Under the pieces are notes generated by a model. That model was not told where the DNA came from. It searched no databases and saw nothing but the letters and a program-made list of their open reading frames with translations. Of a stretch of 52,257 nt of DNA, positions 808 through 51,858 are shown one piece after another (within the stretch, counting starts at the first letter, position 1; every line of letters begins with the position of its first letter). The position numbers and the translations under genes were made by a program. The DNA comes from Candidatus Avigastranaerophilus sp. (lineage in GTDB: Bacteria > Muiribacteriota > Ozemobacteria > Ozemobacterales > Ozemobacteraceae): assembly GCA_045639725.1 (NCBI GenBank), contig JAZUDR010000328.1, positions 1 through 52,257 of the forward strand. The letters are read 5' to 3'.

Positions 808-1788
808 TTACCAGCCAAGAACGTAAGCGAAAAGTAATGGAGCTACGATAGTGGCGTCAGATTCGATAATGAATCTTGGAGTATCTTTAGAAAGCTTACC
901 CCAGGTAATCTTTTCATTTGGAACAGCACCGGAATAAGAACCATAAGAAGTGGTGCAGTCAGAAATCTGGCAGAAGTAAGCCCAAAGTGGAGTGCCCTTC
1001 CAACCAAGATCCTGTTCCATCATTGGAACGCAGCAGATTGGGAAATCGCCAGCAGTGCCGCCGCCAATCTGGAAGAAACCGCAGCCCTGACCGCCGCCGT
1101 TCTTTTTATACCAGTCGCAGAGGAACATCATGGTTTCGATACCATTCTTAATCATAGACTTAGAAGCATCGAATTCACCCTTAATGCAGTGTGCAGTGTA
1201 AATGTTTGCAGTAGTGCAGTCTTCCCAAGCTGGAACTAAAATCGGGATATTCTTTTCACAGGCAGCGAGAACCCAACTGTCCTTTGGATCTATTTCATAA
1301 TACTTTTCAAGAACGCCGCTTCTGAGTAAGCGATAGATTACTTCCCAAGCGAAAAGTCTTTCGCCCTTAGCTTTCATATCGTTCCAAATGTCAACCAGAT
1401 GGTCTTCAAGACGACGGAAAGCTTCTTCTTCTGGGATACAAGTATCAGTTACACGGTTATAGTGATTTTCAAGAAGCTTGTGTTCTTCTTCTGGAGTTAA
1501 GTCACGATAGTTTGGAACTCTGTAGTAGTGATTGTGAGCTACAAGGTTCATTACGTCTTCTTCGAGGTTGTTTGCAGAACAACATACGATAGAAATCTTA
1601 TCCTGACGGATCATTTCAGCAAGTGAAAGACCGATTTCGGCAGTACTCATAGCACCAGCCATAGCAAGCATCATCTTGCCGCCCTTGTTGATGTGTTCAT
1701 CATAAGCCTTAGCAGCGTCCATAAGTGCTGCAGAGTTAAAGTGGCGATAGTGATGACTAATGAATTGAGAAATAGGACCTTTGGCCAT
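808..1788 (-). CDS. Deoxyhypusine synthase-like protein (homospermidine-synthase-type DHS homologue), 326 aa
   Basis: Full-length ORF. Blocks GGKMMLAMAGAMSTAEIG, ISIVCCSANNLEEDV and FFQIGGGTAGDFPICCVP read as the DHS fold. GGAGA sits 7 nt upstream of ATG 1788. Confidence 0.8.
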   Translation of the reverse strand: MAKGPISQFISHHYRHFNSAALMDAAKAYDEHINKGGKMMLAMAGAMSTAEIGLSLAEMIRQDKISIVCCSANNLEEDVMNLVAHNHYYRVPNYRDLTPEEEHKLLENHYNRVTDTCIPEEEAFRRLEDHLVDIWNDMKAKGERLFAWEVIYRLLRSGVLEKYYEIDPKDSWVLAACEKNIPILVPAWEDCTTANIYTAHCIKGEFDASKSMIKNGIETMMFLCDWYKKNGGGQGCGFFQIGGGTAGDFPICCVPMMEQDLGWKGTPLWAYFCQISDCTTSYGSYSGAVPNEKITWGKLSKDTPRFIIESDATIVAPLLFAYVLGW

Positions 1789-1919
1789 TACATTGTCTCC
1801 TATAAAAATAAACTATGTACGGCATAAAATTTCCGACTGTAAATTTATACAACTTAAAGGCTTTAAATGTCAAGAAAAGAATATTTCAGCAGTCTGCTGA
1901 TTGGTTGCCGTAAACTGAA

Positions 1920-4760
1920 TCAATTCTCGCGTAGCGACAAAAGTTCATACAGTGGGAATGTACGGTTAGTGCGACCCTTGATTGCCAAGCGTTCAATGAA
2001 CTGCAGTTTTCCTGCGCCCTGTAAAAGTCTTATTGTGTATGGGCATATCAGAATGCCGGTATTCTGTGCTTTTACAGCCTGAACTTTCAGACGGGCTGCA
2101 AGGTTTACCGGGTTACCAATAACAGTGTAGTCTAATTTTCCGTTTCTTGAGCCTATTTTGCCAGAAACAGCGTCACCAGAAGCTATACCCATTACTAATC
2201 TGAAACCGGGTATCTGATTCTTTAGTTTGTTGTTGATAGCCAGAGCCGTTCTGCATGCATTAAGCGCAAGTCTGTCATTGCTGGTTGTTTTTCTGAAGAC
2301 TATCATTACTGTATCTTCAATCAGTTTGTCTATTTGGCCTTTATTATCTGTTGAAATCTCATCGATAGCGTCTACTAGTTTACCTATTACAGAGGTTATC
2401 GTTTCTGCGGGATACTGGCTTAATTCTTTTTCTCCTTTTAAAGCGCAGAATAGTATGCTGACAGGTATTCTTTCACCGCCTGGCTGTAATTGCATATCGC
2501 TATTTGAAATTTCATTAATGACATCTTGAGAAACATAGTTTGTCATTTTTTCCTTTTGAAGCAAAGCGTCAGTCATTTCGTTGAATGATTCACTCAGTGT
2601 TTCGAATTCATCACGTGATTTCCATTGGATTTTGTTTGTATAATCGCCTTGTCCGACCTTTTCGGCATTTTTTTTCAACTGCTTCAACGGTGTGATGATT
2701 ATGCCGCCAAGAAGCAATGATAAAGCCAATATAAGAAGAAGCGTATATATAAGTATTTTATTTATGTCTACGGAATTGTCGGAAAGTGCATTGCCAGAAA
2801 GCTCTGCAACATTAAATACTATACTGTTCACTTGGCTTATATAGGTTCCGGAAATAACAGTGTCGCCCATATCCCATGTATGATTGTTTTTGGATATTAC
2901 TAATTGATTTGCTTTTTCAATTACCATGTCTATAGGGAATCCGTTTGTCATAATTGTTTTGTCGAGACTTTGAAGCAAGCCATTTTCTGTTAATGGGAAA
3001 ATAGCAGTTTTTATAGAATATTTGCCCATGCGTTTTTCTGAAAATAGGCTGGCTGAGCGCTTTCTTAATACATGCAGCAGATTTTCTGCCTCGAATTTAA
3101 CTACTATGCTTCCTAAGGGTTTTGTTTCATTTGATGATCCTGTGAAAATAGGGAAGACAGAATATAGGGAATTGGGTTCTTCTGCGACTGATGAATAGAT
3201 TTTACCAATGTTTGATATTATCAGACCCATTCCTTCGGGCGAAAAATTCAGGCTTTTTTCCAGTTTATCATATGAATTTATCCTGGAAAAATCTATCTTA
3301 TCAAATGCTTTTTGAAGACCGAAATCTGCAAATCTTTTTACATCATGACTTAATGGGGAAAGAGTAGCATTGGGTTTATTGGTTATTAGATTTTCCTGAT
3401 TGGAATTGTAGCAATAGGAAATTAATTCAGCGTCACTGTCTGGCAACCATTCTTTAAGTTTTTGAACCAGTTCCTCTTCACTTAGATTTATAATACTGCT
3501 TCTAAGATCTGCAATTGATAATTCCTTGTTGCTGATAAATGCTTCTATAGCTTTTTCTATTACTTTCAACTGAATTTGGGTATACTGCTGTATTTCATTT
3601 TTGTTGTATTCCTGTGTATGGTAATAATTGTAATATGCTGCAAGTCCGAATGATGTGAAGGGTATAAGGACTGCTGCCGAAATACAGATTATGACTCTTG
3701 TAAGAATTCTGATATTGCCAGTATAACCAAAGAAAGAAATATTTATCAGCGCAAAGCTTGATAATAAAATCAATAATAATAATGGGAATTTTAAATTGTT
3801 GATTGTTTCTCTCATCGGGTGCTGCAATGATTTTGCAGGAATTGTAATTTTAATCTTTGGAGAGATGCTTTTGAATTTATCTACGTTGAACGGATAATAA
3901 GTATCTTGTGTTATGTAACGGATAACTAATTCTTCAGAAAGCATGCTATATATTGATAACCCATACGACGGATCAAATTCATATTTGTAATATGCTGATT
4001 CCTGCTGTTCTCCAGAAGATACTTCCAGGCTTTTTATATACAACTCATCTGCACTATCCTGATTTGCTGTTTTTATTATTTCTTTTATTGATATGTCCTT
4101 GTTTTTGACTAAGAATAACATATAGTTCTGTTTGTTATCTTTGGTCATAAAGGCTTTAAAATACCCTGTCATTTTTTGCAGTTTTGATTTCCCTGAAAGA
4201 ATAGGGGTTGCATGCTCAGGAATAATTGTTATTCCGCCAGCAGCCAATAAAAACTTTTGGAAATATGCATTATTTCGTTCTATGCTCTGAGAATCTGTTA
4301 TTTGTGAGACTATGCTCTTCATGTATCCTTTTATAGAGGTTTTGGAATACATTCCTAACTCAGATTTCAATTCAGGATAAATGTAAGCGTCTAGTTTTTC
4401 GTTCTCATCATTGAAATAAAACAATGCTGTAATATTTGATTTAAGATGGCGGCTCAGTGAATTCGCTAAGGTATCAGCTGTAAAAGCAGAAGAAGCATAT
4501 TCTGTATTTGGAAAACTTTTTAGCTTATGCTCAATATAATAATCTGTTGTCAGTTTTCTTTGATAATCGTTAATTTCATCAAATAATTGCATTTTGGCTT
4601 TTGATAAAATTCTTTTTTCACCTTCAGACAGAAATGCTTCTGAAACGGTATTCATTCCTAAGTAAGGCAGTATTATCAATAGCAGCCATATAGAAAATAA
4701 TAGAAACTTATTGGAAGTAAGCTTTGCTTGGATTTTAATTTGTTCCTGAATGTTATTCAA
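1920..4760 (-). CDS. Membrane sensor class III adenylate cyclase, HAMP domain, C2-like half-site (946 aa from TTG 4760)
   Basis: Four hydrophobic helices separate two ~300-aa extracytoplasmic segments. HAMP block: IITPLKQLKKNAEKVGQGDYTNKIQWKSRDEFETLSESFNEMTDAL. Cyclase core: VSILFCALKGEKEL (first metal Asp replaced by Ala), DKLIEDTVMIVF, DYTVIGNPVNLAARL (Thr/Asn/Arg retained). Start choice: AGGGAG lies 7 nt upstream of TTG 4760 and gives an 8-nt overlap with the upstream gene. The track start ATG 4835 would overlap by 83 nt. Confidence 0.8.
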   Translation of the reverse strand: MNNIQEQIKIQAKLTSNKFLLFSIWLLLIILPYLGMNTVSEAFLSEGEKRILSKAKMQLFDEINDYQRKLTTDYYIEHKLKSFPNTEYASSAFTADTLANSLSRHLKSNITALFYFNDENEKLDAYIYPELKSELGMYSKTSIKGYMKSIVSQITDSQSIERNNAYFQKFLLAAGGITIIPEHATPILSGKSKLQKMTGYFKAFMTKDNKQNYMLFLVKNKDISIKEIIKTANQDSADELYIKSLEVSSGEQQESAYYKYEFDPSYGLSIYSMLSEELVIRYITQDTYYPFNVDKFKSISPKIKITIPAKSLQHPMRETINNLKFPLLLLILLSSFALINISFFGYTGNIRILTRVIICISAAVLIPFTSFGLAAYYNYYHTQEYNKNEIQQYTQIQLKVIEKAIEAFISNKELSIADLRSSIINLSEEELVQKLKEWLPDSDAELISYCYNSNQENLITNKPNATLSPLSHDVKRFADFGLQKAFDKIDFSRINSYDKLEKSLNFSPEGMGLIISNIGKIYSSVAEEPNSLYSVFPIFTGSSNETKPLGSIVVKFEAENLLHVLRKRSASLFSEKRMGKYSIKTAIFPLTENGLLQSLDKTIMTNGFPIDMVIEKANQLVISKNNHTWDMGDTVISGTYISQVNSIVFNVAELSGNALSDNSVDINKILIYTLLLILALSLLLGGIIITPLKQLKKNAEKVGQGDYTNKIQWKSRDEFETLSESFNEMTDALLQKEKMTNYVSQDVINEISNSDMQLQPGGERIPVSILFCALKGEKELSQYPAETITSVIGKLVDAIDEISTDNKGQIDKLIEDTVMIVFRKTTSNDRLALNACRTALAINNKLKNQIPGFRLVMGIASGDAVSGKIGSRNGKLDYTVIGNPVNLAARLKVQAVKAQNTGILICPYTIRLLQGAGKLQFIERLAIKGRTNRTFPLYELLSLREN

Positions 4761-7700
4761 TGCTAAGCTCCCTATAAAAAACTTCCTGGTTATCTGCTGC
4801 TTCACAGACTTTAAGCTTGTCTGCAACACTTGCATAGGTGTTTTTATCTATGAAAATCTTGCTGGAAACAGCACTTTTGGTCTTTGTTTCCAAGGCTTCT
4901 GCTTCTTTAAGTATTGGGCCCATTAATAGAAACTCACGTCTTCTTGCTTTTTGGCCAGCGAAGCCTATCATGACACTACCGGTTGCAAGACCGATACCGT
5001 TTTCTATAGTAAATAATCCTTGTTTTGCACGTTCTTCATTGAATTGCTTAAGGCTTTCACGCATTTCCAGAGCAGCTTTACATGCATTTAATGCATGGTC
5101 AGGACTCTTTTCTTCGTAAAAGGCTGCTGATATGGCGTCACCAATTATTTTTTCTATTGAACCGCCATACTTGGTAATAGATTTTTCCATTAATGTAAAG
5201 TAATCATTCAATAAAGTTACAACTTCTTCTGGTTCGTTCTTTTCTGAAATAGTTGTGAAGCTTCTTATGTCAGAACTCAAAATAGTTACGTTTGCGCTTG
5301 TTATTGCATTGCCATCATGAGCCGCAAGACTGTTGTATAGCTTGTCGGAAACAAATCGTTTCAGTTTTTCGCGTTCGCAGAGTCCTTCAGCCATCTTATT
5401 AAATGAATCACTGAGTTCTTCCAGTTCATCGCCAGTTTCTATCTCAGTAATTGCATTGAAATGACCACGACCTATTTCTGTTACGAATTTAGTAAGAGCA
5501 TTTATCGGAGCCAGCAGAGCACTTGCTAGAAGATCTGACAGAAGTGCTACAGCTAATATTGCATATAATATCAGTAGCAATGCAAACAATCTGTTAGAGA
5601 AAAAGACAGAATTGTTATCCGGTATTATTGCTACAGCAGCAAAAAGCATTGCACTGTCTGGTATGTAATACCATTTTTTTATTACAGTACCATTTGTGGT
5701 ATGGCTTATCTCTGTATCAGAAGTCTTTTTTTCGACTGCCTTAGTAACTGCTTCTCTAAGATACTGATTATATGGATATGGGGCCTTCAATGGATATATT
5801 TCAGAATGTTCGACCTCTGTATGATTGAAAATGGCGTATTCGATGCAGGTGTTTCCTATTAGCTGTGATAAGAGTGACGGATGCTTTTCTATGACTGTTT
5901 TCCACAAAACCTTTCCAATTTCATAGATTCCTAAGGTCGATAATAGAACTGCATTAGCATTGTTCGGAGTTTGTGGATCTGACAATAGCATATATGAAAG
6001 CTTGTTGCTCAAGGATATGTTCTCACTGGGTATTATATAGCTTTCGCGCGCAAGAATATTTTTGCTGTTGTAAACCTTTGTATATGAGTCTGTATAGCTT
6101 GAAAGCAGCATATATTGCTCATTGTTCTTTTTGTTAAGTGGGCTGCTTTCATCAAGAATATGCATATCGCTCATCATTTTATACATATTAATGATTCTAG
6201 CTAATTTGGTTGAGAAACCATTATGGCTCTTAGAAAATTCCACCAAAAATCCTGATTTGTCTAATAGAAATGCATTTGCCATTGTTTCTGGCTTTTTTAT
6301 ACCTGGTATTACTTTATTTTCTTTTAAAGAACCAAAAAAGTAATCAGTCGTATTTTCATAATACATTTGAGCTATATAACGTTTGAATTCCAAGAACTCG
6401 GTATTGATGTCTATTGACAAATCATCCTTGAACTTATTGAAAAGTGCAAGTCTTTCATTCATCGCATTTTCTATACTGCTATTCTGGAGATTCTGTTCTT
6501 TTTCTGAAACTAGAATATAAATACACCATAAGCCGATAACCGGTATTACTACAGCAATTAAAACAATGGCTCTCACTTTGAGTGAAAGAAAAATCTGTGG
6601 ATTAACGAAATGAAAAACACTATTCAGAAAGATTATTCCCAGCAATGCTATGACAACATATGTAATGACATTACAGTATTTCAGATAGATGAGAAAACTG
6701 TTGTTTAAGTCGCTTTTTGCGATGGAAACAGATATTGCATTGTTGTCTATGAATTCTTTGTATTTCTGATATTCTTCTGGGTTAAAAAGCTTATGACTTT
6801 CTATGCAGTTAGAGAAATAAGAGGGAAAAGGAATCTTATAGGTTATTGTATCTTTGTTCAGTTCCCAGATTGGAAATTTTATTGATTCTTTAATAATACT
6901 TCTAGTTATGGGTAATTCATTGCTTTCAGCTTTGCTATTGGTTATACATTCTAAGAATTTTGAAATTTGAATATCAGAGCTTTTTATGCATACAAAATAT
7001 GTTCCGAGTATTTTTATCGTATTATTGCCTTCTCTTAAGATTAAGGGGCAATAATACTGATAAATATTCTGATTGCCATGATTGCAGGAAAATGAACTAA
7101 AACAAGTCTTAGGGTAGTTTAAATCTGAATTAAACAGGGTTAAGTATTTGGCACACTCAAACATAAATGCGTTGGAACGCGAACCTCTTATAAAATACTG
7201 GCTATTAATACTATTTAGTTTTTGGTTCAAATATTGCCAGTTTGATTTAAGCACAGGTAACACGGTTACAGATCTTGGCAGATACAAGTAATTCCTACCT
7301 AAGAATGCATTTATAAAATTGTTTTTATCAATGTCGTTTTTGAAAATATGGCTCGGATCATCTATTGCAATATCTGTAAAATCGTAATTACTACTAATAA
7401 ATAAAAATGGTTCTATGCCATATTTCTCTTTTATAAAGCGCTTAGATTTTTCTATGAAATCTGATTTTATATAATCCGGCTCAGATTCCTCTGTAAAAGT
7501 GAATTTGAAATTGCGATTTTCTAAGTCGGGAAATTTAAGATATGTCTCAAGATCATTAAAAGCTTTTTTTACATATGATTCAGGCTTTAAATCATCCCGG
7601 AAATTATTCATTTCCCTGAGAAGACGTTCTTTTACCAGTTCTTCATTTATTGAGGACTGGCGTTCAGCAAGCCTATTGAAATAATCTCTTAAATATAATA

Positions 7701-7773
7701 GCGGAATAACTGATAAAATAAAAACAAAAAAGATTCCCAAAGTTTTTGAGAATCCTTTTTGTGTAATTTGCAT
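4753..7773 (-). CDS. Membrane sensor class III adenylate cyclase, HAMP domain, C1-like half-site (1006 aa)
   Basis: Same 4-TM / two-loop topology as the downstream paralogue. HAMP block: LAPINALTKFVTEIGRGHFNAITEIETGDELEELSDSFNKMAEGL. Cyclase core: VTILSSDIRSFTTISE and EKIIGDAISAAF (both metal Asp present), but REFLLMGPILKEAEALE sits where xxYDxxGDxVNxAxRxE is expected, so Asn becomes Lys and Arg becomes Ala. Confidence 0.85.
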   Translation of the reverse strand: MQITQKGFSKTLGIFFVFILSVIPLLYLRDYFNRLAERQSSINEELVKERLLREMNNFRDDLKPESYVKKAFNDLETYLKFPDLENRNFKFTFTEESEPDYIKSDFIEKSKRFIKEKYGIEPFLFISSNYDFTDIAIDDPSHIFKNDIDKNNFINAFLGRNYLYLPRSVTVLPVLKSNWQYLNQKLNSINSQYFIRGSRSNAFMFECAKYLTLFNSDLNYPKTCFSSFSCNHGNQNIYQYYCPLILREGNNTIKILGTYFVCIKSSDIQISKFLECITNSKAESNELPITRSIIKESIKFPIWELNKDTITYKIPFPSYFSNCIESHKLFNPEEYQKYKEFIDNNAISVSIAKSDLNNSFLIYLKYCNVITYVVIALLGIIFLNSVFHFVNPQIFLSLKVRAIVLIAVVIPVIGLWCIYILVSEKEQNLQNSSIENAMNERLALFNKFKDDLSIDINTEFLEFKRYIAQMYYENTTDYFFGSLKENKVIPGIKKPETMANAFLLDKSGFLVEFSKSHNGFSTKLARIINMYKMMSDMHILDESSPLNKKNNEQYMLLSSYTDSYTKVYNSKNILARESYIIPSENISLSNKLSYMLLSDPQTPNNANAVLLSTLGIYEIGKVLWKTVIEKHPSLLSQLIGNTCIEYAIFNHTEVEHSEIYPLKAPYPYNQYLREAVTKAVEKKTSDTEISHTTNGTVIKKWYYIPDSAMLFAAVAIIPDNNSVFFSNRLFALLLILYAILAVALLSDLLASALLAPINALTKFVTEIGRGHFNAITEIETGDELEELSDSFNKMAEGLCEREKLKRFVSDKLYNSLAAHDGNAITSANVTILSSDIRSFTTISEKNEPEEVVTLLNDYFTLMEKSITKYGGSIEKIIGDAISAAFYEEKSPDHALNACKAALEMRESLKQFNEERAKQGLFTIENGIGLATGSVMIGFAGQKARRREFLLMGPILKEAEALETKTKSAVSSKIFIDKNTYASVADKLKVCEAADNQEVFYRELSIE

Positions 7774-7788: not shown

Positions 7789-8577
7789 TTATTTCTTAGG
7801 TCTTACGTATTTCTTCATGAAACCGTTAAGATTAGAGAAGATACCCATAAGGATATTCACTTCACGCGCAGTTGGAGAAGAACGATGGAAGAATGCTCTT
7901 AAAACCTGGAATAAGTCATCCGGATTTACTAATGGCAGAAATTCGCACATGCTCAGAACACGGGTCATGTGGGCATATAACTTAGCAAGCTCATCAGTAG
8001 TTGCCGGCTGTTCCAATGGATCGTCAGCCTGAGCTTTCTTTAATGGAACTGGATTACCGAACTTCTGGAATAATTCATAAGCTATCAGTAATACAGCCTG
8101 AGAAAGGTTGAGAGAAGTGCACGCAGTATCTGTTACTACTCTCATGCAACCCATGCAGTGCTGTAGATCATCCTTGGTGAGACCCCATTCTTCGCGGCCG
8201 AACAGGATAGAAACCGGTCCCTGTGAAAGAACCTTTTCTATTCTTTCCAGACCTTCTTGGACTGTATAATTCGGTTCATGATATTCGCCACGTCTGTTAG
8301 CGGTTCCTAATACCAATACGCTTCCCTGAATTGCTTCGGGTATGGTCTGGAACACTTTTGCATTGTTCAGCAGTTCCTGTGAGTGCATTGCCATTTTTAT
8401 TGCATCACTGTCTATTTCACAACCAGGTCTTACAAGACAAAGATTATGAAGACCAAAATTGTTCATTGCACGACAGGTAGAACCGATATTAAGTGGTCCC
8501 TGTGGTTCTACTAAAACAATACGTATATTATCCAACAGCAGATTCTGCTGTGGTTCTGGAAAATTTCTATCAGTCAC
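7789..8577 (-). CDS. trmJ: SpoU/TrmH-family tRNA (cytidine/uridine-2'-O)-methyltransferase, TrmJ-like
   Basis: The N-terminus IRIVLVEPQGPLNIGSTCRAMNNFGLHNLCLVRP closely parallels the TrmJ N-terminal motif. The SPOUT C-terminal block LNLSQAVLLIAYEL is present. GTG start with GGAG 7 nt upstream. Confidence 0.8.
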   Translation of the reverse strand: MTDRNFPEPQQNLLLDNIRIVLVEPQGPLNIGSTCRAMNNFGLHNLCLVRPGCEIDSDAIKMAMHSQELLNNAKVFQTIPEAIQGSVLVLGTANRRGEYHEPNYTVQEGLERIEKVLSQGPVSILFGREEWGLTKDDLQHCMGCMRVVTDTACTSLNLSQAVLLIAYELFQKFGNPVPLKKAQADDPLEQPATTDELAKLYAHMTRVLSMCEFLPLVNPDDLFQVLRAFFHRSSPTAREVNILMGIFSNLNGFMKKYVRPKK

Positions 8578-8607: not shown

Positions 8608-8681
8608 TAGGCCCGCTCGGATTCGAACCGAGGACCCCCACCATGTCACGGTGGTGCTCTAACCAACTGAGCCACGAGCCT
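8608..8681 (-). tRNA. tRNA-Val (anticodon GAC), 74 nt, no encoded CCA
   Basis: Folded by hand on the minus strand. Acceptor AGGCTCG/CGGGCCT (one G-U pair), D arm GCTC-AGTTGGTTA-GAGC, anticodon arm CCACC-GTGACAT-GGTGG (U33, GAC, A37), variable loop GGGTC, T arm CTCGG-TTCGAAT-CCGAG, discriminator A. Confidence 0.9.
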
Positions 8682-8774
8682 TTGAACAAATGCTATGATA
8701 TCATCTCACACCTACTATGTCAATACCCTTTTTTATATATTATAGACTGTTGGCTTTTATATTTGAGGGTTTTG

Positions 8775-13176: not shown

Positions 13177-13177
13177 A

Positions 13178-14014: not shown

Positions 14015-14064
14015 ACGTATTCACCTTATATATAAATAGCCATATGGCCAAATTTGGAATCTTG

Positions 14065-26887: not shown

Positions 26888-26899
26888 TTTGTTTAAAAA

Positions 26900-42642: not shown

Positions 42643-45027
42643 TTATCTTTCTGGTTCTGTGTAACCAAGTGCTGTCTTGGTAAATACATAACCCTTCAGG
42701 ACCTGTTTGATGGCATTTTCCTGTTGAGGTGCCTGAGAACACATCTTCAAGGTTAAATCCATAGCGTTGAAGGCTTCCTGAGGCCTGTTGGTGTAATTAT
42801 AGCAATAGGCAAGAAGTATGCTGGCTTCTACGTCTACAGGTGAAATATCAAGAGCTTTTTCCAATACGACAATGGCTTCATCAAACTGGTGAAGCTGCAT
42901 GTGAAGAGCTGCAAGTTTCTGGTAAATAACAGGGTTACGAGGTGAAAGATCTGCAGCTCTTGTCAAAAGCTTAATACTGTCACTGTATTTGCCTGCAATC
43001 TGATAAATCTGAGCAAGAAGCAGGTATGCGCCAAGAATCTTCGGATAAATGCTAAGAGCCTTAACAAGATACTGGAGAGAGGTTTCGTATTTACGTGCGC
43101 AGAAATAAATAGTTCCGAGGTTGAAGAGTGCTTTAACGATGTTAGGATTAACTTCAAGAGCGTCCTTATACAATCTTGCAGCTTCGTTATTGCGCTTAAG
43201 CATGAACAGCATGTTAGCATGTGCAAGCAGTGCTTTGACATGTTTCGGTGATTTCAGATGGATAGCATTGAATATTTCTTCTGCTTCGTCATATTCCTTG
43301 TTAGCAATGTAATCGGCTGCCTGTGTAAGTTCTTCGGCAAAGCTGTTATCGGGAAGAATTTCATTACTGATAAGAACAGTCTTCGGAGCTTCGTCCTGGC
43401 TCTGGTCAATCGGTGAATCTTCTTTGGTTGCTTCACGGGTTGCTGGAAGCTGTTGCGGCTTAGCTGGTTCTATGGCAGCTTTTGTTTCAGGAGCACTAGC
43501 TTCTGGTGCAACTTCTGCAGTTTCTTCTGCATTGAGCTTGTTGATTTCATCAGGATTTTCAATCAGTTCAGCAATGATATTGTTGATTGAATCTGACATC
43601 TGGTCATCGTTGCTGATTTCCTTACCGATTTCGCCTAGAACGAAGGTTGCAGATTGGATAAGCTTCTTGTCGTTGCTCTTAAAGAAGCCGCGAAGATTAT
43701 CTAATACAGAATATTCACCCCAGATCCAGAGGGTTCTGATGGCAGTGCTCTTTACACGGTTGTCATCATGGCTCAGTAAATATTTGAGGCGGCCTAAGAG
43801 TGAATTGTCAGGCTTTTTGCAAAGCTTAACAAGTGCGTCAATAGTATTGGAAATAACACGTGGGTCTTCGCTGCTAAGGTAATTAGATATTACTGGAACA
43901 GCTTCTTCCTTGCCAAGCTGACCTAAGCAGGAAATACATGTTGCCTGAACAATGTGGTTTTCTTCATTGGGAAGGTGATTAGCGATGTGTTCGTAAGCAA
44001 CACCGGGAGCACATCTTGTTAATGACTGAATTGCTTCAACACGGACGTCGAAGTTGGGGTCATTAAGCATTGGAATAAGGTTTGGTGTTGCTTCAGAGAG
44101 TTCTATCTTTCTGATTGCATTTGCTGCATTTCTTCTAACATCGGAATCTTCATCCTTAAGGGCTCTTGAAAGAAGGTGGATGAACTTCGGATCATTGATT
44201 TCACCAATTGCATAGGCTGCAGATGCACGATACCATTTGTCACCATGCTCAAGCATTTCAGTGAGAGTTTCGGTAACGTCGAAATCGCCATATTTCCAGA
44301 TGGCCTTTGCAACATTTGCTCTGACACGATTGTTGGGGTCTTCAAGGTAAGGCTGAAGAATACCAACAATAGAACCTGATTTTATACCTTCAATAGCTTC
44401 GATTGCATTTGCTCTGACACGGGGGTCTTCATCGCGAAGTGCACCCTGGAAAACAGGCATGAGCTTGTCGCTGGCCATCATTCCTAAAGCCATAATAACA
44501 GAAGCTCTGATACGGGCATTCTTTTCATTGGCATAAAGTCGCTTTAAAAGACTGTTAGCCATCCAGTTCTTAATTTTGCCGAGAGCAATGATTGCGCCAA
44601 TAATGGAATCTTCTTCAAAGAAGATAAGGGCATCGTCTACGATGTTTTCCTTGTCTGCAGAGTGGAGATTCGAATCAATATAATTGTTGAGGGCTTCCAT
44701 CAGGATGTCGAATGCTTCAGGATTTTCCATCATACCCAAAGCGCGGGCGGCATTGAAACGAACTTCCTGACTCGGATCTTTGAGCGCGTTAATTAAAAGC
44801 TTTACTGATTTGCTGGAATCAATGTTGCCAAGTGCAAGGGCCATAAAGTCCTGCATATTGTCACTTTCATAGGTTTCAAGCAAAAAGTCTGTGGCTTTTT
44901 CGCCCTTGAATTTTGAGAGAGCGATAGCTGATTCACGGCGCTGGTTATAATCACCAGCTAAAAAGTTGTGTATAAGCTTTGCTAATAATGGTTTTATATT
45001 GTTAACAACAATCTGATTGGCTTCCAT
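42643..45027 (-). CDS. HEAT (PBS-lyase-like) repeat + C-terminal TPR protein, paralogue A (794 aa)
   Basis: Repeated D-x-(D/N)-x-x-VR-x-x-A-x-x-A-L/I-G units (DPSQEVRFNAARALG, DEDPRVRANAIEAIE, DPNNRVRANVAKAIW, DEDSDVRRNAANAIR, DPNFDVRVEAIQSL). A Pro/Glu/Ala-rich linker is followed by about six TPR units. AGAGGG Shine-Dalgarno sequence. Confidence 0.8.
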   Translation of the reverse strand: MEANQIVVNNIKPLLAKLIHNFLAGDYNQRRESAIALSKFKGEKATDFLLETYESDNMQDFMALALGNIDSSKSVKLLINALKDPSQEVRFNAARALGMMENPEAFDILMEALNNYIDSNLHSADKENIVDDALIFFEEDSIIGAIIALGKIKNWMANSLLKRLYANEKNARIRASVIMALGMMASDKLMPVFQGALRDEDPRVRANAIEAIEGIKSGSIVGILQPYLEDPNNRVRANVAKAIWKYGDFDVTETLTEMLEHGDKWYRASAAYAIGEINDPKFIHLLSRALKDEDSDVRRNAANAIRKIELSEATPNLIPMLNDPNFDVRVEAIQSLTRCAPGVAYEHIANHLPNEENHIVQATCISCLGQLGKEEAVPVISNYLSSEDPRVISNTIDALVKLCKKPDNSLLGRLKYLLSHDDNRVKSTAIRTLWIWGEYSVLDNLRGFFKSNDKKLIQSATFVLGEIGKEISNDDQMSDSINNIIAELIENPDEINKLNAEETAEVAPEASAPETKAAIEPAKPQQLPATREATKEDSPIDQSQDEAPKTVLISNEILPDNSFAEELTQAADYIANKEYDEAEEIFNAIHLKSPKHVKALLAHANMLFMLKRNNEAARLYKDALEVNPNIVKALFNLGTIYFCARKYETSLQYLVKALSIYPKILGAYLLLAQIYQIAGKYSDSIKLLTRAADLSPRNPVIYQKLAALHMQLHQFDEAIVVLEKALDISPVDVEASILLAYCYNYTNRPQEAFNAMDLTLKMCSQAPQQENAIKQVLKGYVFTKTALGYTEPER

Positions 45028-45274: not shown

Positions 45275-46366
45275 ATGGCAGACGAAAAAAGCTTATATAG
45301 ATTATTAAAACTTACATTTGACCAGAACGCATCAGACTTGCATCTGAAGGTCGGTAAAATTGCGTGTATCCGCGTCGACGGGCATATTACACCTGTTGAA
45401 GGTTATAAGTTCAGTAAAAATGATTTCGAAAAAATCATCGAAGCTTTGCTGAATCCTGAACAGGAAGCGCAGTTCCGCAAAAATCATGAGCTTGACTTTG
45501 CTTACACCCTTGAAGGTGTTTGCCGCTTCAGAGTAAATCTTTATACTGATTTAAACGGTCCGGGTGCTGTGTTCAGAGTTATTCCATACCGTGTTATGGA
45601 TTTTGATGAGATAGGGTTGCCCAATGCTGCCCGAAGGCTGATTGAGCAGCCAAATGGTCTGATTCTCATTACCGGCCCCACAGGCGCTGGCAAGACTTCG
45701 ACTCTGGCAAGCTATTTGAGTTACGTAAATCAGAATGCAAAGCGTCACATTGTGACTCTTGAAGACCCGATTGAATACCAGTTTGAAGATCAGTTGTCTT
45801 TTTTCAATCAGCGCCAGGTTGGTGTTGACTGCAGAAGTTTCTATGAAGGTCTTTTAACAGTATTGCGACAGGACCCAGACATTGTTGTCGTAGGTGAAAT
45901 GCGTGACCCGGAAACGATTTCATTGACTCTAAATGCTGCAGAAACTGGGAAACTTGTTATCGCAACTTTGCATACCAATTCCGCTGTTGCAACTGCTGAA
46001 CGTATTGTTAATGTTTTCCCGGAAGACAGACACAATCAGATTCTTTTGCAGCTTTCTATGGTATTGCGCGGCGTTGTTTCCCAGACTTTGCTCAGAAGAA
46101 CAAATGGCGGTCGTGTTGCTGCTTTTGAACTTCTGTTGAATACTTCTGGGGTAAGAAGCCTTATAGCCGAAGGTAAGATCCACATGCTTCCATCTTATCT
46201 TGAAACAGGTGGCGAAACTGGTATGATGACAATGGAAATGTCATTGGCCCAGCTTGTAAAGGATAAGATAGTTACTCCTGAAGAAGCTTTTGCTTCCGCT
46301 CCGAATCCAAATGCTTTGCGTAAGCTTTTAATGCCAAAGCCAATGCAGAGTCAGGTTCAGGGTTAA
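45275..46366 (+). CDS. pilT: Type IV pilus retraction ATPase PilT (copy 1, canonical motifs)
   Basis: ASDLHL N-terminal block, GPTGAGKTST (Walker A), TLEDPIEY (Asp box), DPDIVVVGEMRD (Walker B plus catalytic Glu), ATLHTNSA (His box), GVRSLIAEGK. Confidence 0.9.
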   Translation: MADEKSLYRLLKLTFDQNASDLHLKVGKIACIRVDGHITPVEGYKFSKNDFEKIIEALLNPEQEAQFRKNHELDFAYTLEGVCRFRVNLYTDLNGPGAVFRVIPYRVMDFDEIGLPNAARRLIEQPNGLILITGPTGAGKTSTLASYLSYVNQNAKRHIVTLEDPIEYQFEDQLSFFNQRQVGVDCRSFYEGLLTVLRQDPDIVVVGEMRDPETISLTLNAAETGKLVIATLHTNSAVATAERIVNVFPEDRHNQILLQLSMVLRGVVSQTLLRRTNGGRVAAFELLLNTSGVRSLIAEGKIHMLPSYLETGGETGMMTMEMSLAQLVKDKIVTPEEAFASAPNPNALRKLLMPKPMQSQVQG

Positions 46367-46376
46367 GGAGGATTGA

Positions 46377-47420
46377 ATGCAGACTTTAAAGATACATAGA
46401 TATTTTGACATAGCTATTGAACGTCAAGCCTCTGACCTTCATTTGAAGGCTGGTTCACCACCAATCATCAGAGTCGGAGGTCGTCTTATTACATTAGCCG
46501 AAGAACCTCTTGCCTTCCAGGAAATGCCAAACCTTTTTCTGCCATTGATGGAATTGAAGGACCAGCAGGACCTTAAAACAAGATTTGAAGCTAACTTTAT
46601 GACTGCCTACAAGAGCCGTTTTAGAGTCAGAGCTTGTATATATACACAACGCGGCTGCCTCAGCGGCGCTTTCCGATTTATTCCTCAGAATGTGCCTTCA
46701 ATTGAAAGCTTAGGTCTGCCACCTATTCTGAAGGATATCGCACAGCTCCCGCGCGGTCTTTTCCTTGTTACTGGTCCGGCAAACTCAGGCAAGACTCACA
46801 CTCTTGCTGCAATTATTAACGAAATTAACAAAACCTCGGCCCGTCACGTAATTACTATTGAAGACCCTATAGAATTTGTTTACCGCGAAAAGAAATCTAT
46901 TTTCACCCAGCGCGAAATAGGTGTAACTTCGAATAGCTATTCAAGCGCTCTTATGAACGCTTTGCGCGAAGACCCGGATGTAATTCTCGTTGGTGAAATG
47001 CGCGATGTGGATACGATTGAAATGGTTCTGACTGCCGCGGAAACAGGTCACCTGGTTTTCTCGACTCTGCATACTGTTGGCGCTGTTCAGACCATAGACC
47101 GTATTGTAAATATGTTCCCAGGCCATAGACATGATGAAATCAGAACTCAGTTGTCTATGTCACTCATAGGAATTATTTCGCAGATATTGCTACCAAGCCT
47201 CCATAAAAAGGAACGCGTAATGGCACACGAAATAATGATTATGAACTCAGCAATGAGAAATCAGGTAAGAGAAAAGAAAACAAATCAGCTTAAGTCTGCC
47301 TTGATGCTTGCACGTAAGGACGGTTGCAAGACCTTGAAGGACTCTTTGTCTGAAATCCTAAAAGATGAACGCGTTGATCCAAAGCTTATCGCTAACATCA
47401 TGAGAGAAATTGTAGAATGA
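46377..47420 (+). CDS. PilT/PilU-family ATPase (copy 2, canonical motifs)
   Basis: GPANSGKTHT, TIEDPIEF, DPDVILVGEMRD and STLHTVGA. AAGGAGG Shine-Dalgarno sequence; start lies 10 nt after the pilT-1 stop. Confidence 0.85.
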   Translation: MQTLKIHRYFDIAIERQASDLHLKAGSPPIIRVGGRLITLAEEPLAFQEMPNLFLPLMELKDQQDLKTRFEANFMTAYKSRFRVRACIYTQRGCLSGAFRFIPQNVPSIESLGLPPILKDIAQLPRGLFLVTGPANSGKTHTLAAIINEINKTSARHVITIEDPIEFVYREKKSIFTQREIGVTSNSYSSALMNALREDPDVILVGEMRDVDTIEMVLTAAETGHLVFSTLHTVGAVQTIDRIVNMFPGHRHDEIRTQLSMSLIGIISQILLPSLHKKERVMAHEIMIMNSAMRNQVREKKTNQLKSALMLARKDGCKTLKDSLSEILKDERVDPKLIANIMREIVE

Positions 47421-49576
47421 CGAAGCAACAACAAAACGAAGATATTGAAGCATTTAGATATGTAAAAGCTGGTAGAAGGCTGATGAAGCCTATTACAGAT
47501 AAGCTTGAAGCACTCGTTAAGAACGAGGATATATCTGACGAACTAAGGTTTGAAGCATTGATAAGTCTTGGTAAAATTGGCGATAACGAATCTTTGCCGA
47601 CTTTGACAAGAATTTTCAATGAATATCCAGACTACTTGGAACCTATTACTGCCTTAGGGCATTATAAGAGCAGCACTCCTGTTTCAAAGCTTATCGAACG
47701 ACTTCAGGACCCCGATTCCCTCTATAAGGAAGAAATCGTCAGAGTTTTGGGTGAAATCGGTGACCCGATGGCTACTAAGACTTTGATGGAGCTCCTTCAT
47801 GATGAAGACAGAATGGTTCGCTATTATTCTGCCAGAGCTCTTTACAAAATGGGTGGCCGCGATGTTGTTCAGGCTCTTTGCAGCTTGCTTAATGACCCAG
47901 ACGAATGGATTGTTATTAACGTTCTTGAAATTCTTTCCAAAATGAAGGACCCGGATGCTATACCAGCTTTGGTAGGGCAGTTTGAAGTAATCAGGGACTC
48001 ACGTCTTAAGGCTATTATCATTTCGTCTCTTGCTAATTTCGCTGAAAGCAAGCTTCTTAAGACCTTTGAAAGCGCTTTGGATTCATTTGATTCACGTATT
48101 CAGGCTAATGCCGTTGAAGCTATTTCAATGCTCAAGATACCTGGCCCAGAAATGAAAAGAAAGCTTAAACGCTTCTACGGTCATCCAAATAACAGAGTCA
48201 GGGCAAATATGTGTATTGCTCTGGCTAATGCTGATACAAAAGCCGTTTTTGAAGAAATAGGCTGTATGCTTGTAAGCCGTGATGCTTCCACAAGACGTTC
48301 TGCTGCTTATGTTCTTGCGAGAATTGATTGTGAAAAGAGAAGCGAATATATTCATACTTTGCTTGAAGATGAAAACTTTGGTGTCAGAAAGATGGCCCTC
48401 AGAGCAGCTCTGGCATTGGGCGATGCTGTAGGTGTTACAGAAATCAAGCCTTTGCTGAATGATGAAAATCAGTGGGTTCGCCGCGAAGTTGTTGAATGTG
48501 CTCTTGGTATGGACGATTTCCCGAACGACCTGATTCTTGCCCGTTTGAAGAAGGAAGATTGTCCTCCTGTTGTTGAGCTTTTGCTTAAATATGTTGTAGA
48601 CAGGCATTTGTATGAAGCCGTTCCGATGATTTATGAACGCATCAAGAGGGAACCAGAAGAAGAAATGCCGTGGCTCATTTCTGCATTAGGTCACTTGGGT
48701 GCTGTAAAAGAGCTTAATCAGGCTAAGAAATTCCTTAGTGCGGTTAGAGCCAGTGTATTTGTAGAATACTATCAGGCACTTTTGTTGAACGGCGACCTGA
48801 GCATATTCAAAACCATATCTGATAATCTTGATGAAAAGAAACGTGAACAGGAGCTTCTTTCCTGGACAAACGTCGCAGGTGTTCTTGGCAACTTTATTCA
48901 GGATACTAAGTCATATTCAAGAGTTTTACTGGAAGCTCTTGGACGTGAAGTCAAGATTGATATGGGTGAACTAGCAGATGATGCTGTTGCGGGTGCTGTT
49001 GAAAATACAGACGAACTCATGGCTAAGGGGCGTGAATTCTATCTCGTAAAAGACTACAGCCGTGCTTCACAGCATTTTGAAAAGGTTGTTGCTGCCCGAC
49101 CCCATGATCTTGATGCCCGTTATTTGCTGGCAAATTGTTCTTATTACCTTGGTGACGCTAACAGAGCATGTGACCTTCTTGAAAAGATTCTTGTTGCAAA
49201 GCCTTCACATATTGATGCTGGTATTCTGCTTGGTCAGATGTATTTCAGACGTAAGGACTGGAAGCAACTGGCAGACTGCTACAATAAATTGAAGGATTTC
49301 ATCAAAAGTGACGATAAAAAGAATGAAATCAGGGTTTATGGCGCACTGGGGCTTGCATACTTCAATCTGAAGCATTATGAAGAAGCTATAGAAGCTTTGA
49401 ATAGAGGGTTGAAGGCAAATCCCCGTGACCTGTCGTCTTCCTACCACCTGGCTCTATGCTATTATTCTGTTGGTAATGCTGAAAAGGCCAGAACAATTCT
49501 TGAAGGTCTGAGAAAGACCTTGCCGCCTGATAGTCAGGTATTGAAGAACGTTCTCGAGTTGCTGCAGAGGATGTAG
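47417..49576 (+). CDS. HEAT (PBS-lyase-like) repeat + C-terminal TPR protein, paralogue B (719 aa)
   Basis: HDEDRMVRYYSARALY, NDPDEWIVINVLEIL, HPNNRVRANMCIALA, DENFGVRKMALRAAL and NDENQWVRREVVECAL units, then about five TPR units. ATGA overlap with PilT copy 2. Confidence 0.8.
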   Translation: MTKQQQNEDIEAFRYVKAGRRLMKPITDKLEALVKNEDISDELRFEALISLGKIGDNESLPTLTRIFNEYPDYLEPITALGHYKSSTPVSKLIERLQDPDSLYKEEIVRVLGEIGDPMATKTLMELLHDEDRMVRYYSARALYKMGGRDVVQALCSLLNDPDEWIVINVLEILSKMKDPDAIPALVGQFEVIRDSRLKAIIISSLANFAESKLLKTFESALDSFDSRIQANAVEAISMLKIPGPEMKRKLKRFYGHPNNRVRANMCIALANADTKAVFEEIGCMLVSRDASTRRSAAYVLARIDCEKRSEYIHTLLEDENFGVRKMALRAALALGDAVGVTEIKPLLNDENQWVRREVVECALGMDDFPNDLILARLKKEDCPPVVELLLKYVVDRHLYEAVPMIYERIKREPEEEMPWLISALGHLGAVKELNQAKKFLSAVRASVFVEYYQALLLNGDLSIFKTISDNLDEKKREQELLSWTNVAGVLGNFIQDTKSYSRVLLEALGREVKIDMGELADDAVAGAVENTDELMAKGREFYLVKDYSRASQHFEKVVAARPHDLDARYLLANCSYYLGDANRACDLLEKILVAKPSHIDAGILLGQMYFRRKDWKQLADCYNKLKDFIKSDDKKNEIRVYGALGLAYFNLKHYEEAIEALNRGLKANPRDLSSSYHLALCYYSVGNAEKARTILEGLRKTLPPDSQVLKNVLELLQRM

Positions 49577-49650: not shown

Positions 49651-49685
49651 GGCTATTGGCTCTTAGCTTTTGGCTGTTGGCCGAG
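49651..49685. repeat. Short heptanucleotide block GGCTNTT x5 (opposite orientation to the AGC-core units)
   Basis: GGCTATT GGCTCTT AGCTTTT GGCTGTT GGCCGAG in 7-bp phase. A third short block, GGAAGCA GGAGAGC TTAGAGC, lies at 49701..49721. Confidence 0.55.
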
Positions 49686-49759
49686 AACAAGCAGGCCGAC
49701 GGAAGCAGGAGAGCTTAGAGCTTATTTATGAAAAATTACTAATGAAGAAAGGGTTTTTG

Positions 49760-50806
49760 ATGTCTGAATTAGTTAAAATATGGGACTTGGTTAAGGCAAA
49801 GAAGCCTTCTGATATTCATTTGTCTCCGAATCAGAGGGTATATTACAGAGTAAATGGTGTGCTTGAAAAGCTTGATACCATTGTTACAGAAGACCAGATT
49901 AAGAAAATTATCCTGGCCACTAGCACTCCTAAGGCTAGAGAAATACTTGGTCATCAGCGCCAGGTTACTTATGCTGAAAATGTAGATGGCATCGGTCGTT
50001 TGAGATTCTCCGCTTTCTTTGAACGTGGCCGTTTTGCTATTTCTCTTCGCGTTATTGAAGATAGCTTTATGGAACTTGAAGACCTTGGAATCAATGAAAT
50101 GCAGAAAAAGGCTCTTTTCCAGCAGTCAGGTCTTGTGCTTGTAGGTAGCCCGTCCTGTGAAGGCAAATCTACAACAATTGCCTCTATTCTGAATTACATG
50201 AACCATAACTTCCAGAAGAGCATTTATACCATTGAAAACCCTGTAGAATTTGTATATCAGGATGATAAGGCAGCCTTCATACAGCGCAGTATTCCAGTAG
50301 ATATTTCCAACTTCTATAATGGTCTTTGTGAAGCTTACCGCGTAGACCCGGATGTAGTTGTTACTGACTCAGTTGTTTATGCTGACGCACTCGATCAAGC
50401 CCTTACCCTTGCTGAATCCGGGTGCTTGGTAATTGCTTCAACTGACGGTGGTGACTGCCTCCAGATTATTGAAAGACTTACAGGTCTCAGAGTTCCTGAA
50501 GAACGTGAAAATCTTAGACAGAGAATTGCTAACCAGCTCAGAATGATTATAAGCCAGAGACTTGTGCCTACGATTAATAACGAAAGCCGTAAGCCGATTT
50601 TCGATATTATGATAAACACTGTTCAGATGAAGGACCTCATCAAGAAGAACAATGTCAGCATGTTCAGAACAATTCAGAGCCAGAAGGAAGCAGATGGTAT
50701 GCGGACTTTTGACAAGCAGCTTCAGAACCTTGTTGGTAAGAAGATTATTTCTATGAAGACTGCCATTGAATTTGCAATTGATAAGAACAAGTTTGTTGCT
50801 ATATAA
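49760..50806 (+). CDS. PilT-family protein with degenerate catalytic motifs (copy 3, 348 aa)
   Basis: PSDIHL N-terminal block and PilT-like length. The motifs are altered: VGSPSCEGKST (first P-loop Gly lost), TIENPVEF (Asp to Asn), DPDVVVTDSVVYAD (no GEMRD) and ASTDGGDC in place of TLHT. GAAAGGG Shine-Dalgarno sequence lies 6 nt before ATG 49760. The track start 49670 lies inside the repeat block. Confidence 0.75.
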   Translation: MSELVKIWDLVKAKKPSDIHLSPNQRVYYRVNGVLEKLDTIVTEDQIKKIILATSTPKAREILGHQRQVTYAENVDGIGRLRFSAFFERGRFAISLRVIEDSFMELEDLGINEMQKKALFQQSGLVLVGSPSCEGKSTTIASILNYMNHNFQKSIYTIENPVEFVYQDDKAAFIQRSIPVDISNFYNGLCEAYRVDPDVVVTDSVVYADALDQALTLAESGCLVIASTDGGDCLQIIERLTGLRVPEERENLRQRIANQLRMIISQRLVPTINNESRKPIFDIMINTVQMKDLIKKNNVSMFRTIQSQKEADGMRTFDKQLQNLVGKKIISMKTAIEFAIDKNKFVAI

Positions 50807-50817
50807 GAGGTGAAGCC

Positions 50818-51858
50818 ATGGATGTGAAAAAGTTAATTGAAAAAGTTGTTACATTAGGCGGTAATGAATTACATCTTAAGATTGGTTCTCAGCCTCTTAT
50901 CCGAAAGAATAATAATTTGACTGCCATGGATATGCCAGCTTTGATTGAAGCAGACATGACAAGTCTTATTGAAGATCTCTTGACTTCAGATGAAGCTGCA
51001 AAATTCAGTAAGACTGGTGTTTTTGAAGCAAATCATTTTGGTCAGCCACCCTGCAATTTCAGGCTTTCATTATTCCATTCTCAGCAGAAGCCAGTTGCTT
51101 ATATAAAGCTGATAAAATCTGAAATTCCTACAGTAGAAGAAATTGGTTTCCCAACAAGCGTTTCCAACCTGCTGAGTTCACCAAAGGGATTGATGATTCT
51201 TACAGGTCCGTCCCGTTCCGGAATTTCTACCTCAATGGCTGCTTTGGTAGAACATATGAACGCAAAATACAAGAGACATATTCTTGTAATAGAAGACCCG
51301 ATTCAGTATTACTATGAACCGAAGGAATGCATTATTTCCCAGCGTCAGTTCTCAAAGGATATTTTCATGGTCGAACAGGGGATTAACTTTGCAAAGCGCA
51401 TGGATGTTGATGCTCTTGTTATTGGTGACCTCAAACGTGATATTCCTTTTAAGAATGTAATGGAATATGTTGCCGGTGGTAATCTGGTAGTGCTCTGTAT
51501 GCAGACCCTCGGTGCCGTTGCTGCTCTTGAAAAGATTGTATATTCATTCCCAGAAAACTATAGAGATTTTGTAAATCAGGTTCTTACCGAAAACCTGCTT
51601 GCAGTCTGCTCTCAGACATTGATTACCAATTCATCTGGAGTAAATGTTCCGATACACGAAGTATTCATTCCTAATAAGAACACTGAAAATATTACTCAAT
51701 ACGGTAAGTATCAGCAGCTTGAAGGTAATATAAGCACTGCTGGTGCAGGTAGCAGATTGTTTAGGGATGAACTCAAGGATAAGATTGCTGCCGGTAAGCT
51801 TGATAAAGCTTCTGCAGACGTTTTCTTCGAAGCTTATAAAGGCACTAGATTGCAATAA
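50818..51858 (+). CDS. PilT-family protein with degenerate catalytic motifs (copy 4, 346 aa)
   Basis: GNELHL N-terminal block. GPSRSGISTS (P-loop Lys to Ile), VIEDPIQY retained, ALVIGDLKRD (Glu to Asp) and LCMQTLGA (His to Gln). AGAGGTGA Shine-Dalgarno sequence; start lies 11 nt after copy 3. Confidence 0.75.
   Translation: MDVKKLIEKVVTLGGNELHLKIGSQPLIRKNNNLTAMDMPALIEADMTSLIEDLLTSDEAAKFSKTGVFEANHFGQPPCNFRLSLFHSQQKPVAYIKLIKSEIPTVEEIGFPTSVSNLLSSPKGLMILTGPSRSGISTSMAALVEHMNAKYKRHILVIEDPIQYYYEPKECIISQRQFSKDIFMVEQGINFAKRMDVDALVIGDLKRDIPFKNVMEYVAGGNLVVLCMQTLGAVAALEKIVYSFPENYRDFVNQVLTENLLAVCSQTLITNSSGVNVPIHEVFIPNKNTENITQYGKYQQLEGNISTAGAGSRLFRDELKDKIAAGKLDKASADVFFEAYKGTRLQ

Follow-up and report, generated by a model that had tools for sequence, protein, structure and literature searches.

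How could two membrane proteins, encoded side by side and each retaining only half of the catalytic residues of a class III nucleotide cyclase, make a working enzyme? The locus that raises this question lies on contig JAZUDR010000328.1 of a genome labelled Candidatus Avigastranaerophilus sp. (assembly GCA_045639725.1); the whole stretch analyzed here, 52,257 nucleotides (nt), is referred to as the window. The locus consists of two genes on the reverse strand. Gene A (4753..7773) is an open reading frame (ORF) of 1006 amino acids (aa) with an ATG start, and is predicted to encode a sensor cyclase with the metal-binding half of the active site (C1-like). Gene B (1920..4760), which follows directly downstream, encodes 946 aa from a TTG start and is the candidate sensor cyclase with the substrate and transition-state half (C2-like). 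We consider it likely that A and B together make up a single adenylate cyclase receptor in the membrane, an obligate heterodimer of class III and IIIb-like, with one active site.

The two proteins share one architecture. A Pfam scan placed a HAMP domain and the class III cyclase family PF00211 in both, above the curated cut-offs. PF00211 scored 67.2 bits in A (E = 1.9e-18) and 43.6 bits in B (E = 3.2e-11) against a cut-off of 21.9, and the HAMP domains had E-values of 9e-8 in A and 8e-10 in B. A hydropathy scan identified four transmembrane (TM) segments per protein, and the order is the same in both: TM1, an outside segment, a TM2/TM3 hairpin, a second outside segment, TM4, HAMP and cyclase domain. 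In A, these elements are TM1 (residues ~10-32), outside segment 1 (~33-362), TM2/TM3 (~363-423), outside segment 2 (~424-728), TM4 (~729-751), HAMP (748-798; PF00672, 5380..5532, reverse strand) and the cyclase domain (826-1006; 4756..5298, reverse strand). The corresponding elements of B are TM1 (~19-38), outside segment 1 (~40-325), TM2/TM3 (~326-376), outside segment 2 (~377-668), TM4 (~669-690), HAMP (684-734, or 709-759 in the numbering of the longest possible ORF; PF00672 and HAMP_2, 2559..2711, reverse strand) and the cyclase domain (766-946, mapped to 1968..2465, reverse strand). HAMP thus follows TM4 directly in both proteins, as in HAMP-linked receptors. Identity between A and B amounts to 25% and is restricted to HAMP and the cyclase domain, with HAMP and the helix that follows it aligning without a gap. 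An AlphaFold2 (AF2) model of the B cyclase domain superposes on the adenylate cyclase CyaB of P. aeruginosa (3R5G) with a TM-score of 0.62 relative to the target. No third cyclase domain was found in the whole 52-kb window.

To assign the catalytic residues, we combined phmmer alignments to CyaB and to the Synechocystis guanylate cyclase Cya2 (2W01) with a read-out of hidden Markov model (HMM) columns. Six columns were read, namely the first metal Asp, the Lys, the second metal Asp, the Thr/Asp position, the Asn and the Arg, for which the reference CyaB reads DKDTNR. A reads DKDLKA: it retains D835, K875 and D879, and has L949, K956 and A960 in place of Thr, Asn and Arg. B reads AKDTNR, with A773 at the position of the first metal Asp, followed by K812, D816, T879, N886 and R890. 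The full set of six residues is present in neither chain, and A and B together supply exactly one full set. The anchors RRxF...G...LE on either side leave no room for a shift in the alignment. A first-pass annotation of this DNA had described adjacent genes with an 8-nt overlap and a common topology, both metal Asp kept in A with Leu, Lys and Ala elsewhere, and the first metal Asp lost in B with Lys, Thr, Asn and Arg kept. The ORFs, the junction sequence, Pfam and the hydropathy scan agree with the former, and the alignment to solved cyclases reproduced every one of these residue calls, with no Asp, Asn or Arg displaced. The two residue lists were incomplete in that A also keeps the Lys (EKIIGD) and B the second metal Asp (KLIED). 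In addition to the alignments and the HMM read-out (2W01 and 3R5G for A, 3R5G for B), the domain assignments draw on the invariance of these residues in orthologues and, for B, on the AF2 model.

Class III cyclases dimerize head-to-tail, so that one chain gives the pair of metal Asp and the other gives Lys, Thr, Asn and Arg. Given this geometry and the two signatures, an A:A dimer would lack Asn and Arg, a B:B dimer would lack the first metal Asp, and an A:B dimer would hold exactly one complete pocket, its mirror pocket being incomplete. In subclass IIIb adenylate cyclases, by definition, the substrate is specified by Lys and Thr, the latter taking the place of Asp. B has this pair (K812/T879), and A has K875 together with L949. 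The best matches in the PDB differ in kind: A aligns best with the guanylate cyclase Cya2 (E = 4.6e-23) and B with the adenylate cyclases CyaB and CyaC (1WC0; best E = 4.5e-11). At the specificity positions, where B has Lys and Thr, Cya2 has Glu and Gly.

The junction between the genes gives a first indication that they are expressed together. The longest possible B ORF spans 1920..4835, from an ATG at 4835. The TTG at 4760 is the better predicted start, because a Shine-Dalgarno sequence, AGGGAG (4768..4773, reverse strand), lies 7 nt upstream of it and because gene calls in orthologues begin at the homologous codon. This ribosome-binding site falls within the C-terminal Y-R-E-L codons of A, and the start of B (TTG, 4758..4760) overlaps the stop of A (TAA, 4753..4755) within a shared stretch of 8 nt (4753..4760, reverse strand), indicating putative translational coupling. 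Among the 11 orthologous pairs whose junctions we compared, nine place a GGGAG ribosome-binding site for B within the same Y-R-E-L codons of A; the other two (L007 and the first pair of L013) have AGAGAA or AAAGAA. In orthologous pairs, B starts with ATG, GTG or TTG, overlapping the stop of A, and the overlap measures 4, 8 or 11 nt. Furthermore, at positions 4761-4780 of the window and at the homologous junctions of L001-L015, the sequence TAYAGGGAGCT specifies the conserved peptide F/Y-Y-R-E-L at the C-terminus of A. These peptide codons are at the same time the Shine-Dalgarno site of B, and the stretch would thus be under both protein-level and translation-level constraint.

We then asked whether the pair and its complementary losses are conserved. 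Close relatives comprise 15 pairs, including those of loci L001-L010 and L012-L015, and 11 of the pairs served for the comparisons of junctions, co-variation and domain identity. At loci L001-L010 and L012-L015, the upstream gene encodes ~1000-1046 aa and the downstream gene ~945-976 aa, with an overlap of 4 or 11 nt. In all 15 close pairs the A protein reads DKDLKx, where x is variable, and the B protein reads [A/V]KDTNR. As these pairs are only 40-70% identical overall and the pattern recurs across a large family, the complementary losses are not a chance feature. Four distant A-type representatives (P0031, P0050, P0056 and P0035) are all followed by a B-type gene that overlaps or abuts them, with the signatures AKDTNR, EKNTNR, SKDTNR and SKDTNR, respectively.

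The two genes also share their history. Pairwise identities among the A proteins correlate with those among the B proteins (r = 0.974, a value reached by none of 5000 permutations), which argues that A and B have been inherited and duplicated as a unit. The correlation covers a reindeer-rumen genome that carries two co-duplicated pairs in a row. In two loci, L002 (1-10865) and L013 (1004-12853), the genes form a tandem A1-B1-A2-B2 in which each junction overlaps by 4 nt. Between the tandem pairs, identity is ~50% for A as well as for B, again pointing to duplication of the pair as a unit. Among the 11 orthologues, mean identity is 76% for the cyclase domain of A and 78% for that of B, compared with 41-45% for the outside segments. 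The half-dead cyclase domains are therefore the best-conserved part of each protein, which argues that they are under strong selection. Taken together, the survey of neighbors found adjoining genes with complementary substitutions in the 15 close and in all four distant pairs, and these comparative tests support the earlier proposal that neither protein would be competent alone and that the pair would form one competent ATP site.

Word-index protein searches recovered only four A-type and eight B-type relatives, every one within a pair, and made the family seem tiny; an indexed search started from an alignment yielded no more. When the A alignment was used as a profile to search 1.8 billion representatives exhaustively, 1400 matches at E < 1e-30 were returned. 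We classified the best 149 of these 1400 matches, clustered at 50% and leaving out P0001, a close relative of the window protein itself. Single-domain relatives, mostly of ~1000 aa, are A-type in 115 of 119 cases; two are B-type and two (P0163 and P0174) are fully canonical, reading DKDTNR. All 115 A-type relatives retain both Asp, and 112 have K or R at the Lys position. Asn and Arg are both lost in 99 of the 115 and one of them is lost in the other 16, these positions being highly variable. In the B-type domains, the position of the first Asp is taken by A, V, S, G, T, H or E.

The best matches also include 27 two-domain relatives of 1360-2325 aa. In 25 of them an A-type domain comes first, followed by a B-type domain with the signature [G/A/S/T]K[D/E/G]TNR; P0048 has the order B then A, and P0054 has two canonical domains. 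Each half of a fusion carries its own TM segments (up to 4 + 4 detected), HAMP and cyclase domain, and complete fusions are 8-TM chains. Examples from metagenome-assembled genomes (MAGs) of Riflebacteria are P0104, P0105, P0113, P0114, P0123 (MBF0545498.1), P0129 and P0145. These A-B fusions are predicted bacterial 8-TM analogues of the mammalian pseudoheterodimeric adenylyl cyclases. Since they join the halves in the gene order of the window, they provide a gene-fusion argument for physical interaction of A and B. Named organisms in the family are nearly always Candidatus Riflebacteria, Rifleibacterium or Ozemobacteraceae, and the family appears specific to Candidatus Riflebacteria.

A few taxon labels deviate from this picture. 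The closest genome (L011, JAZRWI010000055.1), with 75% identity and the same gene order, is labelled by NCBI as Candidatus Avigastranaerophilus (Melainabacteria). All other relatives with the same locus (L013, L015 and L016 were compared) carry the labels Riflebacteria or Rifleibacterium, and isolated family members are labelled Pusillimonas, Clostridiales or Erysipelotrichia. The deviating labels are probably errors of MAG binning or labelling. In the distant locus L017, the pair is flanked by two more cyclase-domain genes (1-878 and 13024-14304), one of which encodes a 426-aa protein that combines RDD with a canonical DKDDNR domain. These neighbors point to a local cyclase cluster in that genome.

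These features lead us to propose the following mechanism. Translation of the two genes would be coupled, with the ribosome-binding site of B inside the last codons of A and the B start overlapping the A stop, so that equal amounts of the subunits would be favored. The chains would form a head-to-tail dimer held together by HAMP, the helix after it and the cyclase domain of each. In the active pocket, A would contribute the metal Asp D835 and D879, and B would contribute K812 and T879, which specify adenine, and the transition-state residues N886 and R890. The mirror pocket, in which A773 and D816 of B would face K875, L949, K956 and A960 of A, is predicted to be catalytically dead. The Lys/Thr pair, shared with the best IIIb matches of B, predicts cAMP as the product. 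Each subunit would bring two outside segments, and these four, all different, would feed this one output through a mixed HAMP bundle. As to its origin, the system may go back to an ancient whole-gene duplication with subsequent division of the catalytic residues, the genes having been fused to 8-TM chains in related Riflebacteria.

Degenerate pockets serve as regulatory sites in other cyclases, binding forskolin in the transmembrane adenylyl cyclases (tmAC) and bicarbonate in the soluble adenylyl cyclase (sAC), and the first-pass annotation had suggested that the dead pocket here might likewise bind a regulator. We found no support for this, as the residues of A that face the pocket are highly variable across the wider family. 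Within the subfamily of the window, L949 and K956 are invariant; the high variability concerns the same positions in the wider family.

The inputs to such a receptor would be the outside segments, located by the TM scan on the reverse strand. Those of A measure ~330 aa (segment 1, 6688..7686) and ~305 aa (segment 2, 5590..6504), and those of B ~285 aa (segment 1, 3786..4643) and ~290 aa (segment 2, 2757..3632). Segment 1 of A has a weak, sub-threshold Pfam match to sCache_3_3 (E = 0.038), and profile searches of the PDB with all four segments gave no match below E = 0.04. In hhalign comparisons, segment 1 of A and segment 1 of B show weak similarity (E = 2e-4, probability 46%), no similarity was found between the two segments 2, and segments 1 and 2 of A did not match each other. 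Because similarity is weak for segment 1 and absent for segment 2, the two subunits very likely sense different things, and integration of two sensor sets by the pair is plausible. The AF2 model of full-length A, built with five sequences, was unusable (predicted local distance difference test, pLDDT, 38.9). That of full-length B, built with eight sequences, reached a pLDDT of 60.9, with moderate confidence only for the cyclase domain and outside segment 2. The latter (pLDDT ~65-87) is modeled as a long helix leading into two alpha/beta modules. Foldseek matches, otherwise dominated by the cyclase domain, gave for this segment a single match at low TM-score, to the MCPB-MCPC chemoreceptor model 9a69_B, and on this model the segment is possibly Cache-like.

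Could A and B instead be co-regulated paralogues that each homodimerize, B acting as a weak or unconventional cyclase through its second Asp and A as a non-catalytic pseudo-enzyme that binds nucleotide or metal and signals by another route? B does retain D816 together with Lys, Thr, Asn and Arg, and A retains its two Asp and the Lys. Canonical single-gene relatives (P0163 and P0174) exist in the same family, and the literature generally treats bacterial class III cyclases as homodimers (PMC9552081, PMC4821796). We nevertheless regard this explanation as unlikely. It leaves unexplained why the losses are exactly complementary and long conserved, as well as the constant coupling of the genes and the A-B order in 25 fusions, and no consistent residue replaces the first Asp in B-type domains. 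In addition, the single-residue variants of the homodimeric Rv1625c of M. tuberculosis speak against activity of such chains alone: D300A is inactive by itself, R376A is described as inactive, and co-expression of the two restores activity (PMC4821796). That A and B do pair and yet make something other than cAMP, such as cGMP or another cyclic or linear nucleotide, seems quite unlikely as well. The specificity is predicted from two residues only, A has a guanylate cyclase as its best PDB match, and class III domains with non-canonical products, the pyrimidine cyclases, exist. Against this, the Lys/Thr of the competent pocket come from B and match CyaB and CyaC, whereas Cya2 has Glu/Gly. Finally, we considered that the split might be an artefact of assembly or sequencing, with a frameshift breaking what is really a single fused A-B gene. 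Fused A-B relatives do exist and the two frames overlap by a few bases only. However, the same stop/start junction with its Shine-Dalgarno sequence recurs in many independent assemblies, from many samples and several lineages, and B begins ~18 aa before its own TM1, whereas fusions have a linker of ~40-140 aa between the first cyclase domain and the next TM segment. We therefore rejected the artefact as hardly credible.

Several observations weigh against the obligate A/B heterodimer with a single site that we favor. The residues are not divided as cleanly as in mammalian C1/C2, given the second metal Asp in B and the Lys in A, and some residual homodimer function of A or B may exist. In the fusions, the HMM scores of the first domain clearly favor A (+52 to +90 bits), and those of the second (A minus B, -25 to +11 bits) do not clearly favor B over A. 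For this reason we do not claim orthology of the second domain with B; judged by its catalytic signature, it would be functionally equivalent to B. All members of the family come from MAGs, and none from a cultured organism. Further partners may be encoded elsewhere in the genome.

The A/B pair invites comparison with several known systems. The complementing chains of Rv1625c, D300A and R376A, are the laboratory counterpart of B and A: both are bacterial membrane chains, one without a metal Asp and the other without the transition-state Arg. When the complementing chains carried different membrane domains, they had activity but no regulation (PMC4821796). The Rv1625c chains were made by point mutation of a single homodimeric enzyme, whereas the A/B division is natural, affects at least three positions, has been maintained throughout a phylum-level lineage and brings together two different sensor sets. 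With the C1/C2 halves of mammalian tmAC, A and B share complementary half sites, the two metal Asp coming from one domain and Lys, the second specificity residue, Asn and Arg from the other, as well as one catalytic and one degenerate pocket and a membrane anchor for each half; furthermore, relatives of the A/B pair are single-chain fusions with the metal half first. In contrast to tmAC, A and B are two separate, coupled polypeptides, each with four TM segments and two large outside segments instead of six TM segments with short loops. They have a HAMP domain before each cyclase domain, no context of G proteins or forskolin, and Thr (IIIb-like) instead of Asp (IIIa) as the second specificity residue, contributed by B.

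Separate, sensor-bearing gene products that form an obligate heterodimer with a single competent site are also reported for the alpha/beta soluble guanylyl cyclase (sGC; PMC3591389) and for the chytrid rhodopsin-guanylyl-cyclase (RGC)/NeoR (PMC8815786, PMC12264004). Unlike A/B, both are eukaryotic, make cGMP (Glu/Cys-type), use haem or rhodopsin sensors and are encoded by genes that do not form an operon. The HAMP-linked or IIIb cyclases, among them CyaB, Spirulina CyaC and the mycobacterial HAMP cyclases, resemble A/B in having HAMP before the class III domain, and B in their Lys/Thr pair. They differ in carrying all six residues in each chain and forming homodimers with two equivalent sites.

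Heterodimerization has been speculated on for degenerate mycobacterial cyclases, and some bacterial sAC-like proteins carry two domains. In the full-text literature, of which our coverage was incomplete, we found no published description of a natural bacterial class III cyclase that is heterodimeric or A/B-fused. GcyB/GcyC of R. centenum were considered as a possible known multi-subunit bacterial cyclase and ruled out, being described as non-catalytic subunits or hypothetical proteins. The pseudoheterodimer has been described as a feature of eukaryotic enzymes (PMC4821796), and the duplication and fusion that gave rise to it have been dated to an early eukaryote (PMC9552081). Because the closest solved structures by sequence are bacterial IIIb enzymes, the asymmetry seen here is probably independent of that in tmAC, and appears to be an independently arisen parallel to the origin of the mammalian adenylyl cyclases. 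On balance, we lean towards the broader view that Riflebacteria evolved, independently of eukaryotes, a family of asymmetric membrane adenylate cyclases, each with an active and a dead pocket, comprising coupled gene pairs and 8-TM fusions. In this view, the split form would act as a coincidence detector or integrator for two different extracellular sensor sets that converge on one catalytic site.

If so, the asymmetric solution evolved in bacteria too, in both split and fused form and against the homodimer rule of the reviews. Bacteria would then show all stages of the route of duplication, division of labor and fusion that is thought to have yielded the mammalian adenylyl cyclases. The pair would also offer a simple, expressible model for a question yet to be answered for the mammalian enzymes, namely how a single catalytic site is controlled by two different receptor halves. 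The arrangement would be a variation on a known principle, surprising for cyclase specialists and so far confined to uncultured bacteria. For annotation, the consequence is that where these genomes carry the label 'adenylate/guanylate cyclase', the gene product is probably inactive alone, because 115 of the 119 single-domain relatives lack Asn, Arg or both.

The surroundings of the pair are conserved in part. A gene for a SpoU-type RNA methyltransferase (7789..8577, reverse strand) ends 15 nt upstream of A, and a PF00588 gene occupies the same place in L001, L004, L005, L006, L010 and L016. This gene is probably co-transcribed with A and B, and would be context and no part of the enzyme. Just upstream of the three genes lies a tRNA-Val (anticodon GAC; 8608..8681, reverse strand), the sole RNA gene of the window, with the region's best promoter-like site (8723..8695, reverse strand) ahead of it. 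A terminator-like hairpin (1886..1900, reverse strand), which has only a weak match to the consensus, is located 20 nt after the stop of B. The conserved downstream neighbor of the pair is a deoxyhypusine-synthase-like gene (808-1788, reverse strand; PF01916 in relatives), which is on the same strand as the pair in L001 and L006 and on the opposite strand in L004, L012 and L016. The Rifleibacterium locus L016 keeps the order of the window: CoaD, Maf, Hpre_diP_synt_I, NusG_II, ApbE, SpoU, A, B and the deoxyhypusine-synthase-like gene. Housekeeping genes make up the rest of the 52-kb window, in which a cyclic-nucleotide-binding protein was sought and not found.

Other parts of the window hold further features. 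Five consecutive ORFs on the forward strand (24702-28998; 384, 344, 224, 181 and 287 aa), some of which overlap by 4 nt, had no Pfam match at E <= 1e-4. At 37194-39878, also on the forward strand, an 894-aa protein consists nearly entirely of ankyrin repeats (10 Ank_2 stretches, E = 2.5e-86), which is unusual for a free-living bacterium. In the region 42643-51858, genes for PilT/T2SSE-type ATPases, four in all, form two adjacent pairs (45275..47420 and 49670..51858), which alternate with genes for two large HEAT and TPR repeat proteins (42643..45027 and 47417..49576). A similar T2SSE pair is found near the cyclase pair of the distant locus L017 (883-3001).

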